From NCBI GenBank assembly GCA_046351315.1, contig JAXLYQ010000026.1, positions 1,471 to 65,470 of the forward strand: DNA of 64,000 bases. The letters are read 5' to 3'. Position numbers and translations under genes: made by a program. Position 1 is the first letter of the stretch. Each line of letters starts with the position of its first letter. Below the pieces are notes generated by a model, which saw only the letters and a list, made by a program, of their open reading frames with translations, was not told where the DNA came from and made no database searches. Below, piece after piece: positions 45,825 to 46,977 of the stretch. The DNA comes from Polyangiaceae bacterium. Its GTDB lineage: Bacteria; Myxococcota_A; Polyangia; Polyangiales; Polyangiaceae.

Positions 45825-46977
45825 TCAATCGACGGGGCAGAACGTGATGTTCAGGCGAGTGCCACCGGTACAAGCGTGATAGCCGCTCTCGTTGTCGATG
45901 CCGAAGTCATCGTACGGGAAGGCATAGATGCCCGGGCAGTGTTGGTGCACCCACTTCGAGTAGGTGTTGTAGGGTGGGTTGATATAGAAATCGCTCGATG
46001 GCGTCGAGAGATCGGGGTGGTCGAGAACACCTCGGTTGAGCGCTGCGCAGAGCTTGGGTTGGTTGCCGAAAAAGTTGGCGCAGGCATAGGCGTCCCATGT
46101 CGTCGCACCGCTGCGCCAGCACACTCAGGAAGCCGCTGCGCGCACTCGCGATCTTGCCGTCAAGCGGCGTGACAATAGGAATGGTTCTTTGTTCTCTCCG
46201 CGTGCGCAATAGTTGCCTGCCGTGCGCTTCATCGCCTTCGATTAGCCCATCGGGGCAACCATCGAGGATGTTCGCGTAAGGCACGTTGCAACCCACTTGA
46301 GCACAGTCGTTGCCGCTTCCGATGGCCTCGATTCGCGAGGGCAAACCCACCCAGTCGACGTACGTGATGTTGGTGTTGAGCGTGGCTGTGTCGTTTGCCG
46401 CGCCCGTCATCTCGACCTTGTCGATCTCGTTGGTGAGATTGCCGTTGCCGTCGGGGCCTTGTGGGTACGCCGTGACGCGTGCTGACGTCCACTGGCGCGG
46501 TGCCGCATACTCTTGAAATTGCCCGGGTTGAAGCTCGCGCGCGTCAGGCATCAACGTGGCTTGTTGGCCTGCTGCGTGAATCCAAAGCGGGATCGGCAGT
46601 GGTTAGCGACGCTGACGATGATCCCGTCTGCGCCTGGGTCGATCGCCCTGCCCTGACCCGCTGTGCCAGATGAGCCCGCGCTGCCACTCGCGCCGCTTGC
46701 TCCGCCCGAGCCCGCTGAGCCCGCACTACCGCCGGTGCCGCTCGCGCCGCCGCTGCCCGCGTCGCCAGCGCTGCCTGGAGCTACCCGGAGGTCGACCCTG
46801 CGCTGCCGTTCGAACCACCCGAGCCAGAGCGCCACCGAGCTTCCCGAGGCGCCACCGTGCCCGATGCGCCAGCAAGGAGGATTCAGTCGAGTCGCTGTCA
46901 CTCGAGCAAGCCGAGGTTGAGACCATCACGAATGAAAGAAGAGACGCAAATACGAAGAGAGAGCGAGACGTGTGCAT
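45825..46977 (-). pseudogene. thaumatin-like secreted protein gene (lipobox signal + Gly/Ser/Ala linker + thaumatin domain), disrupted by at least 3 frameshifts
   Basis: Four consecutive minus-strand ORF pieces alternate frames (46726..46977, 46551..46901, 45907..46554, 45825..46124). The first has a signal peptide 'MHTSRSLFVFASLLSFVMVSTSAC'. The last carries the thaumatin C-terminal signature '...FYINPPYNTYSKWVHQHCPGIYAFPYDDFGIDNESGYHACTGGTRLNITFCP'. The middle piece has 'DCAQVGCNVPYANILDGCPDGL'. Confidence 0.5.

Follow-up and report, generated by a model that had tools for sequence, protein, structure and literature searches.

The closest described relatives of the protein considered here are the β-1,3-glucanases of glycoside hydrolase family 64 (GH64) and the thaumatin-like proteins (TLPs). 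Among the GH64 enzymes, those that produce laminaripentaose include Streptomyces matensis LPHase (structures 3GD0 and 3GD9), whose catalytic residues are Glu154 and Asp170 (PMC4758615), and Paenibacillus PbBgl64A (5H9X). Here we analyse a 64,000-nucleotide stretch of DNA from a Polyangiaceae bacterium (contig JAXLYQ010000026.1; hereafter the window), in which a gene for a lipoprotein of the GH64–thaumatin superfamily (minus strand, 46977–45825) is split by frameshifts and lies beside a gene for a major vault protein (MVP) homologue. The gene carries many small insertions and deletions (indels) that occur on this contig only, and it lacks the substitutional decay of a pseudogene. On balance, we favour the view that the gene is intact and that its breaks arose as an artefact of local assembly or sequencing, in a genome derived from a metagenome.

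Results

The initial annotation of the window described four minus-strand open reading frame (ORF) fragments, and all four are present, at 46726–46977, 46551–46901, 45907–46554 and 45825–46124. Joined, they spell a lipobox signal peptide, a Gly/Ser/Ala linker and a GH64/thaumatin-superfamily domain of ~275 residues. The first fragment opens with the ATG at 46977–46975 and reads MHTSRSLFVFASLLSFVMVSTSAC; by translation and lipobox pattern, the start codon, signal peptide, lipobox and first mature residues occupy 46880–46977. The lipobox, LSFVMVSTSAC, has its lipidated Cys codon (TGC) at 46908–46906 and fits the PROSITE PS51257-type pattern. The same pattern fits the canonical lipoboxes of an orthologue, L032 (FFFALAGC), and of a homologue, P0012 (LLALSAC). 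Pattern match and composition thus bear out the lipobox signal peptide and linker that had been proposed.

The Gly/Ser/Ala-rich linker (46653–46879, minus strand), delimited by frame-aware alignments to L032 and P0012, uses three frames; its DNA reaches 79% GC and holds imperfect 45-nt tandem repeats. The domain follows at 45828–46652, as placed by Pfam, the family alignment and an AlphaFold2 (AF2) model of a family member, and the gene closes with the stop codon TGA at 45825–45827. A conserved acidic pair, Glu (GAG, 46413–46411, in KVEMT) and Asp (GAC, 46356–46354, in YVDW), is kept in the window copy. The final 283 coding bases (46109–45828) form one clean frame containing the C-terminal motif CPGIYAFPYDD...ITFCP and ending in CPGIYAFPYDDFGIDNESGYHACTGGTRLNITFCPVD before the stop. 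NCBI annotates this piece as a 99-residue protein, MFO0660352.1, under the name "beta-1,3-glucanase family protein".

Three orthologous contigs were reached through the protein cluster of this 99-residue fragment. L030 and L031 are Logan assemblies of runs DRR545329 and DRR545331, and L032 is JGI 3300036715 contig Ga0373634_0095803. The window protein is ~80% identical to its orthologues at the amino-acid level. The L030/L031 copy runs in one uninterrupted frame as far as the contig edge. L032 holds the complete start of the gene, with lipobox, long Gly/Ser/Ala linker and domain all in one frame. It also has a single in-frame TAA (about 3149–3151) at the Tyr of KAYCHALD, so that it reads KA-stop-CHALD; the codon is TAC in L030 and TAT in the window. 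The L032 gene is otherwise well conserved, and the stop may have arisen as a separate inactivation or may be a variant within the population. Relative to each other, L030 and L032 have no indels across the domain, and therefore every indel listed below is specific to the window.

We located the frameshifts by a frameshift-tolerant dynamic-programming protein-to-DNA alignment and by DNA alignment to the three orthologous loci. The gene contains at least eight frameshifting indels; the earlier count of at least three was correct but low. The alternation of frames described at first was also real, but both kinds of alignment lead the reading path through all three frames rather than two. Six frameshifting events, agreed by both approaches, lie in the domain, all given on the minus strand. 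A −1 deletion (CCC to CC) at 46597, seen in the DNA alignment to L030, L031 and L032, falls in the Cys-Pro codons of ANHCP. The other five are found by both DNA and frame-aware alignment: a −2 deletion at 46228, by which G-x-x-C-L-S-A-G loses its conserved Cys codon; +1 insertions at 46187 and 46167; a −1 deletion at 46149; and a −1 deletion (GGG to GG) at 46110. In addition, a −3 change at 46405 in the domain leaves the frame intact. At least two further frameshifts, at ~46874 and ~46782, disrupt the linker according to the frame-aware alignments to L032 and P0012, and composition would allow up to four.

The patch of indels spans ~765 bp (46874–46110), about one indel per 100 bp, and within it five frameshifting indels are packed into 119 nt (46110–46228; scan statistic P ~0.01–0.02 under uniform placement). 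At 60% GC, noise kept both a frame plot of G+C at third codon positions (GC3) and a frame scan by codon-usage log-odds from placing frameshifts, and we surveyed the window by Pfam coordinates and orthologue tblastn instead. Over the other ~63 kb, we saw frameshifts in three further genes. Set against 3–6 background events, at least eight events in 1.15 kb correspond to a Poisson P <1e-12 and to a frameshift density ~100-fold above that of the window, in line with the density far above background that had been claimed. We also considered a link between the indels and GATC motifs, which coincide at two of six sites, and rejected it as non-significant by eye given the ~7 GATC sites in the gene.

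Apart from its indels, the gene is well preserved. The frame-corrected sequence keeps 77 of the 80 columns with ≥90% conservation across 120 homologues. Of the columns missed, two are Cys codons struck by indels, and the third holds a residue common to intact L030. When residues were polarised against the wider family, six were derived in the window and 14 in the L030/L032 lineage. A family hidden Markov model scores the corrected window sequence at 434 bits, with eight residues masked, compared with 457 for intact L030. The corrected domain has no in-frame stops.

How much decay such a sequence could conceal was gauged by substituting bases at random in the coding sequence of the orthologue (828 nt) and scoring the runs that left every conserved column unchanged and introduced no stop. 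The probability of a clean sequence was 0.26 after five substitutions, 0.06 after ten, 0.004 after 20 and <1/4000 after 40. This allows fewer than about ten neutral substitutions to have accrued in the 828 nt. So few substitutions beside 6–7 indel events in the domain require an indel-to-substitution ratio of about 1:1 or above. In spontaneous bacterial mutation, as observed in mutation-accumulation studies, the ratio is roughly 1:10. The gene thus bears disabling mutations relative to its intact orthologues (at least eight frameshifts and the loss of a conserved Cys codon), but it shows no excess of non-synonymous or nonsense changes in proportion to its indels, as relaxed constraint would produce.

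The three other frameshifts in the window each interrupt a conserved gene once. At ~42960 (42950–42965, minus strand), an AcrB-type RND permease gene falls into two ORFs, 41914–43680 and 40362–42980, with Pfam ACR_tran positions 1–210 in one frame and 209–1020 in another. Compared with L030, whose protein is 94–96% identical and in a single frame across the site, the window has lost 2 nt here; the RND homologue of a further contig, L034, is an uninterrupted call of 802 residues that runs off the contig end. NCBI annotated only the 872-residue C-terminal part of the permease (MFO0660349.1). A Ser/Thr protein kinase changes frame at ~6650 (about 6610–6660, minus strand, at the upstream end of ORF 5134–6615), in an A6/T6 run that is one of only 17 homopolymers of at least 6 nt in the window; ~42 N-terminal profile positions are lost from the ORF, and the N-terminal part (MKICPKC...CAVKK) carries on in another frame. 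The third gene, for a lipoprotein with MopE-type metal-binding repeats and an FGE-sulfatase domain, changes frame at ~62185 (62180–62195, plus strand; ORFs 61006–62193 and 61967–62581). The break lies inside the FGE domain, where one frame ends in NEAKTA-stop and the other reads EARGAGFRLCTADEL, and reflects either one extra nucleotide (+1) or the loss of 2 nt from a Cys codon.

Several other candidates in the window proved not to be frameshifts. The overlapping ORF pairs 31189/31970, 9104/9720 and 11137/11757 are separate genes. Likewise, a suspected frameshift at ~61.0 kb between two MopE-repeat ORFs was rejected, because the first ends in a MYXO-CTERM-like tail and the second starts with its own lipoprotein signal. 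The first of these ORFs (56927–61123, plus strand) encodes a secreted protein of 1398 residues with MopE-type copper-binding repeats, and its tail (GGACS, a hydrophobic stretch and RRRR) resembles a MYXO-CTERM sorting signal; the separate lipoprotein gene comes directly next.

The product was assigned to the thaumatin family at first, and at superfamily level this stands. The best family match, however, is GH64: the frame-corrected window protein scores 57.4 bits against PF16483 (Glyco_hydro_64; cut-off 27) and L030 scores 58.5, with the match covering mainly profile positions 289–357 of 370. Against PF00314 (Thaumatin), the match that had been suggested as a check, the window copy reaches 24.4 bits, just below the cut-off of 27.4, whereas its relatives lie just above it: L030 at 29.6, P0022 at 29.6 (a full-length alignment, 1–209) and P0012 at 34.3, so that the wider family passes marginally. 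The 99-residue C-terminal fragment alone matches PF16483 at 1.3e-12 and PF00314 at 5e-4. NCBIfam has no match for the domain. The PROSITE thaumatin signature, G-x-[GF]-x-C-x-T-[GA]-D-C-x(1,2)-[GQ]-x(2,3)-C, is unmatched in the corrected window protein and in L030.

For the fold, we built an AF2 model of the homologue P0022 from a 40-sequence alignment (pLDDT 95.1, pTM 0.90). The modelled homologue has a thaumatin fold, a β-sandwich core with disulfide-rich lobes and an acidic cleft. The Glu of KVEMT and the Asp of YVDW, invariant in the 40 aligned homologues, coincide in position with residues of the acidic cleft in TLPs; they align to VEF and RVD of 5h9x and 9vp9 only in weak, sub-threshold local alignments. 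At ~270 residues, the domain is smaller than a full two-lobed GH64 module (~360–410 residues). The family is an intermediate-sized member (~270 residues, 14 Cys) of the GH64–TLP superfamily.

Among 5.8 billion proteins searched, 209 matched as homologues at E ≤1e-3, and the top 120 show 44–56% identity over 84–99% of the domain. Organism names are given for only a few and point to metagenome-assembled genomes (MAGs) of Polyangia or other Myxococcota. Several homologues have the NCBI name "beta-1,3-glucanase family protein", and many bear an additional ricin-type lectin domain. With 209 homologues the family is not rare in bacteria, contrary to what had been said of TLPs in the initial annotation. 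The locus is an ordinary member of a secreted-lipoprotein family that is widespread in Polyangia.

Closer copies of the locus were sought by several routes. The proteins of the window contig form singleton clusters in exact-protein look-ups, and no contig encoding the window LysR protein or the 99-residue fragment was found. Scanning genome contigs with the window MVP gave no match above 75% identity, and scanning metagenomes with the frame-corrected protein gave only a 54% relative; none of these routes led to a second assembly of the species.

Both neighbours of the gene are intact. Upstream and divergent, outside the feature, lies the gene for the MVP homologue (47226–49703, plus strand; 825 residues), which matches Pfam MVP_shoulder at 1.1e-25 and Vault_3 and which NCBI annotates as a hypothetical protein. 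Downstream lies a gene for a class I S-adenosylmethionine (SAM)-dependent methyltransferase-like protein (44752–45780, minus strand; 342 residues), identified by its NCBI name and by tblastn to L030 (69% identity over the full length in one frame).

This SAM-methyltransferase-like gene (~345 residues) directly follows the TLP gene both in the window and in L030 (1089–2141), after a spacer of 45–62 nt. Its identity to the L030 copy, 69%, contrasts with much higher values for the LysR regulator (92%) and the RND permease (95%).

Around the locus lie unremarkable genes, which encode RecJ, an aldo-keto reductase, an SDR protein, a LysR regulator and an RND pump. In L030/L031, the order downstream of the gene is that of the window, namely methyltransferase-like gene, LysR regulator and RND permease; its conservation with L030 indicates vertical descent. 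In L032, a PrsW protease gene replaces the MVP gene upstream of the TLP gene, and PrsW is absent from the window. Elsewhere in the window, 6989–9025 (minus strand) encodes a 678-residue protein that NCBI names HTTM domain-containing (vitamin K-dependent γ-carboxylase-like); its Pfam HTTM match, at 24.5 bits, is under the cut-off of 27.7.

A scan for the MVP itself yielded 29 loci at 54–75% identity, mostly in Nannocystaceae and other Myxococcota and in Cytophagales/Raineyaceae, with single Desulfonema and Riflebacteria MAGs among them. None of the 29 has a GH64/TLP gene within 10 kb of the MVP, and none has other neighbours from the window, except for one weak LysR-type match in L010.

Discussion

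We infer a technical origin for the indels. The gene is most likely intact in the organism itself, and the eight or more small indels would form a local patch of ~765 bp of uncorrected sequencing or consensus error. We favour this reading because the damage consists of indels only, because the indels are tightly sub-clustered and because lone frameshifts occur in other conserved genes of the contig. Five indels within 119 nt fit an error burst better than uniform neutral decay. Moreover, assemblies from long or hybrid reads, being prone to indels, typically leave single frameshifts in well-conserved genes. One of those seen here lies at a homopolymer, and in such a background a technical origin of the dense patch is plausible. 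The initial annotation had named pseudogenization or a locally poor assembly; these were the right alternatives, and the absence of substitutional decay leans against the former.

A number of points weigh against an artefact. A uniform error model fails to explain where the indels lie (P <1e-12), and since a uniform error rate cannot yield such a patch, an artefact presupposes something peculiar to this spot. Coverage might have dropped here, noisy long reads might have been used to bridge a gap, or the gene might be an accessory one that varies among strains. A near-identical paralogue able to confuse polishing was found neither in the window nor in the protein clusters nor in the homologue search, which leaves that explanation unsupported. 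Five of the indels sit in ordinary sequence of 55–65% GC, outside the low-complexity linker, and the patch falls wholly within one gene. The ratio of non-synonymous to synonymous divergence (dN/dS) is 0.12–0.14 for the window paired with its orthologues and 0.04 for L030 paired with L032, a point tempered by dS values of 0.9–1.1, near saturation, and by the polarisation, which puts the extra changes off the window's branch. Relaxed selection on a dead gene would give the same picture, and the in-frame TAA of L032 suggests that the gene is dispensable in the clade.

The contrary explanation is that the gene is a genuine and very recent pseudogene: a dispensable lipoprotein would have taken a first disabling mutation and then gathered small indels under relaxed selection. 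Such a history would account for at least eight disabling indels confined to one gene between intact neighbours, at ~100 times the background density, for a deletion that removes an invariant Cys codon and for the somewhat higher dN/dS of the window copy, and the independent stop in L032 hints at recurrent loss. It does not account for the missing substitutions. With 77 of 80 conserved columns kept, no stops and fewer derived residues than the orthologues, a limit of about ten neutral substitutions implies an indel-to-substitution ratio ~10 times the usual bacterial value, and the packing of five indels into 119 nt and the lone frameshifts in other conserved genes of the contig point to a technical source. 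We therefore consider a recent pseudogene the less likely reading, though a serious contender. More doubtful is the specific case in which the indels are real and mark a lipoprotein inactivated only just now, by a burst of indels with almost no substitutions. If true, this would, with the nonsense codon of L032, mean recurrent and ongoing loss of the gene in the clade, and it would call for a mutation spectrum dominated by indels, locally or globally. Programmed recoding, by which multiple ribosomal frameshifts or transcriptional slippage would keep the gene functional, has nothing specific in its favour beyond the continued homology of each frame segment to the family. At least eight shifts that differ in sign (−1, −2 and +1) and lie in unrelated sequence contexts, a destroyed Cys codon and orthologues in a single frame at the same positions leave it with a negligible probability, and we know of no recoding system that works this way.

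The initial annotation also saw in the two adjacent genes a hint that eukaryote-type genes had arrived by horizontal transfer as a small island. The TLP and MVP genes do stand divergently, 248 nt apart, and both families are best known from eukaryotes. Composition, synteny and marks of mobility are all unsupportive. The GC content of the two genes is typical of the window, and their GC3 (0.71 for the TLP gene and 0.74 for the MVP gene) is unremarkable, within ~1.5 standard deviations of the 0.668 ± 0.052 of 46 window genes. No tRNA, integrase-type signal, Rfam match or flanking repeat was found. The nearest homologues of both genes are bacterial (Polyangia, Nannocystaceae and Cytophagales), and bacterial MVPs have already been described in Myxococcales and Cytophagales (bioRxiv 10.1101/872010). 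Moreover, 29 bacterial MVP loci without a nearby GH64/TLP gene, PrsW in place of MVP in L032 and the downstream order kept in L030 all speak against an island. Neither composition nor mobility, borders or linked distribution thus marks out an island; we regard one as very improbable, and the adjacency of the TLP and MVP genes looks coincidental.

The locus holds little biological news: the family is plentiful in Polyangia, the NCBI pipeline already has a name for it, and myxobacterial MVPs are known. The lesson is one of caution. A patch of ~0.8 kb and scattered frameshifts make counts of pseudogenes or gene remnants from this MAG contig untrustworthy without read support. The analysis also offers a reusable test that needs no reads, in that the loss of conserved residues in proportion to indels separates technical frameshifts from real decay. 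Independently of the broken copy, this uncharacterized family of ~270 residues, between GH64 enzymes and TLPs, may interest those who work on the predation of myxobacteria on fungi. For the function of its members, we infer from homology that the lipid-anchored, linker-tethered domain would bind or hydrolyse β-1,3-glucan outside the cell, at its surface, with fungal or oomycete wall glucan or exopolysaccharide as possible targets.

The nearest relatives of the window protein are the "beta-1,3-glucanase family" proteins of Polyangia and other Myxococcota. P0012 and L032 have the same architecture of lipobox, Gly/Ser/Ala linker and domain, and the family has the same 14 Cys, invariant Glu and Asp and YAFPYDD motif. 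Two differences set the window copy apart. It alone carries the indels, and it does not have the C-terminal ricin-type lectin domain (PF14200/PF00652) of many relatives.

The resemblance to GH64 β-1,3-glucanases such as LPHase and PbBgl64A extends from the PF16483 match to structure. Foldseek aligns the P0022 model with the GH64 structures 7vtl, 5h4e, 3gd0 and 5h9x at E ~1e-10 to 1e-13, with query-normalised TM-scores of 0.65–0.73; normalised to the target, the scores are only 0.44–0.53. The family profile also aligns with GH64 enzymes over the C-terminal motif CAALNR...Y.F.YDD. However, the family domain is ~100 residues shorter than the GH64 modules, and its Glu and Asp are 20 residues apart, compared with 16 in GH64.

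The best Foldseek match of all is a TLP, Mal d 2 (3ZS3; E 5e-13, target-normalised TM-score 0.75), and about 25 further TLP or thaumatin entries match as well, including a bacterial one, 7P22, from Amycolatopsis rifamycinica. In full length, the family profile can be aligned with Mal d 2 and Pru av 2 (2AHN), including the Glu (laEf against vEmt), the Asp (SlvDGfNlP against tYvDWvglP) and CP.aY.yaYDD...itFCP. Like PR-5 TLPs, to which osmotin and zeamatin also belong, the family is secreted and disulfide-rich, but it has 14 Cys where TLPs have 16 (or 10), and an extra helical insert of ~60 residues (helices at 137–231 of the P0022 model). Unlike TLPs, the window protein carries a lipid anchor, from which the domain is held by a long linker.

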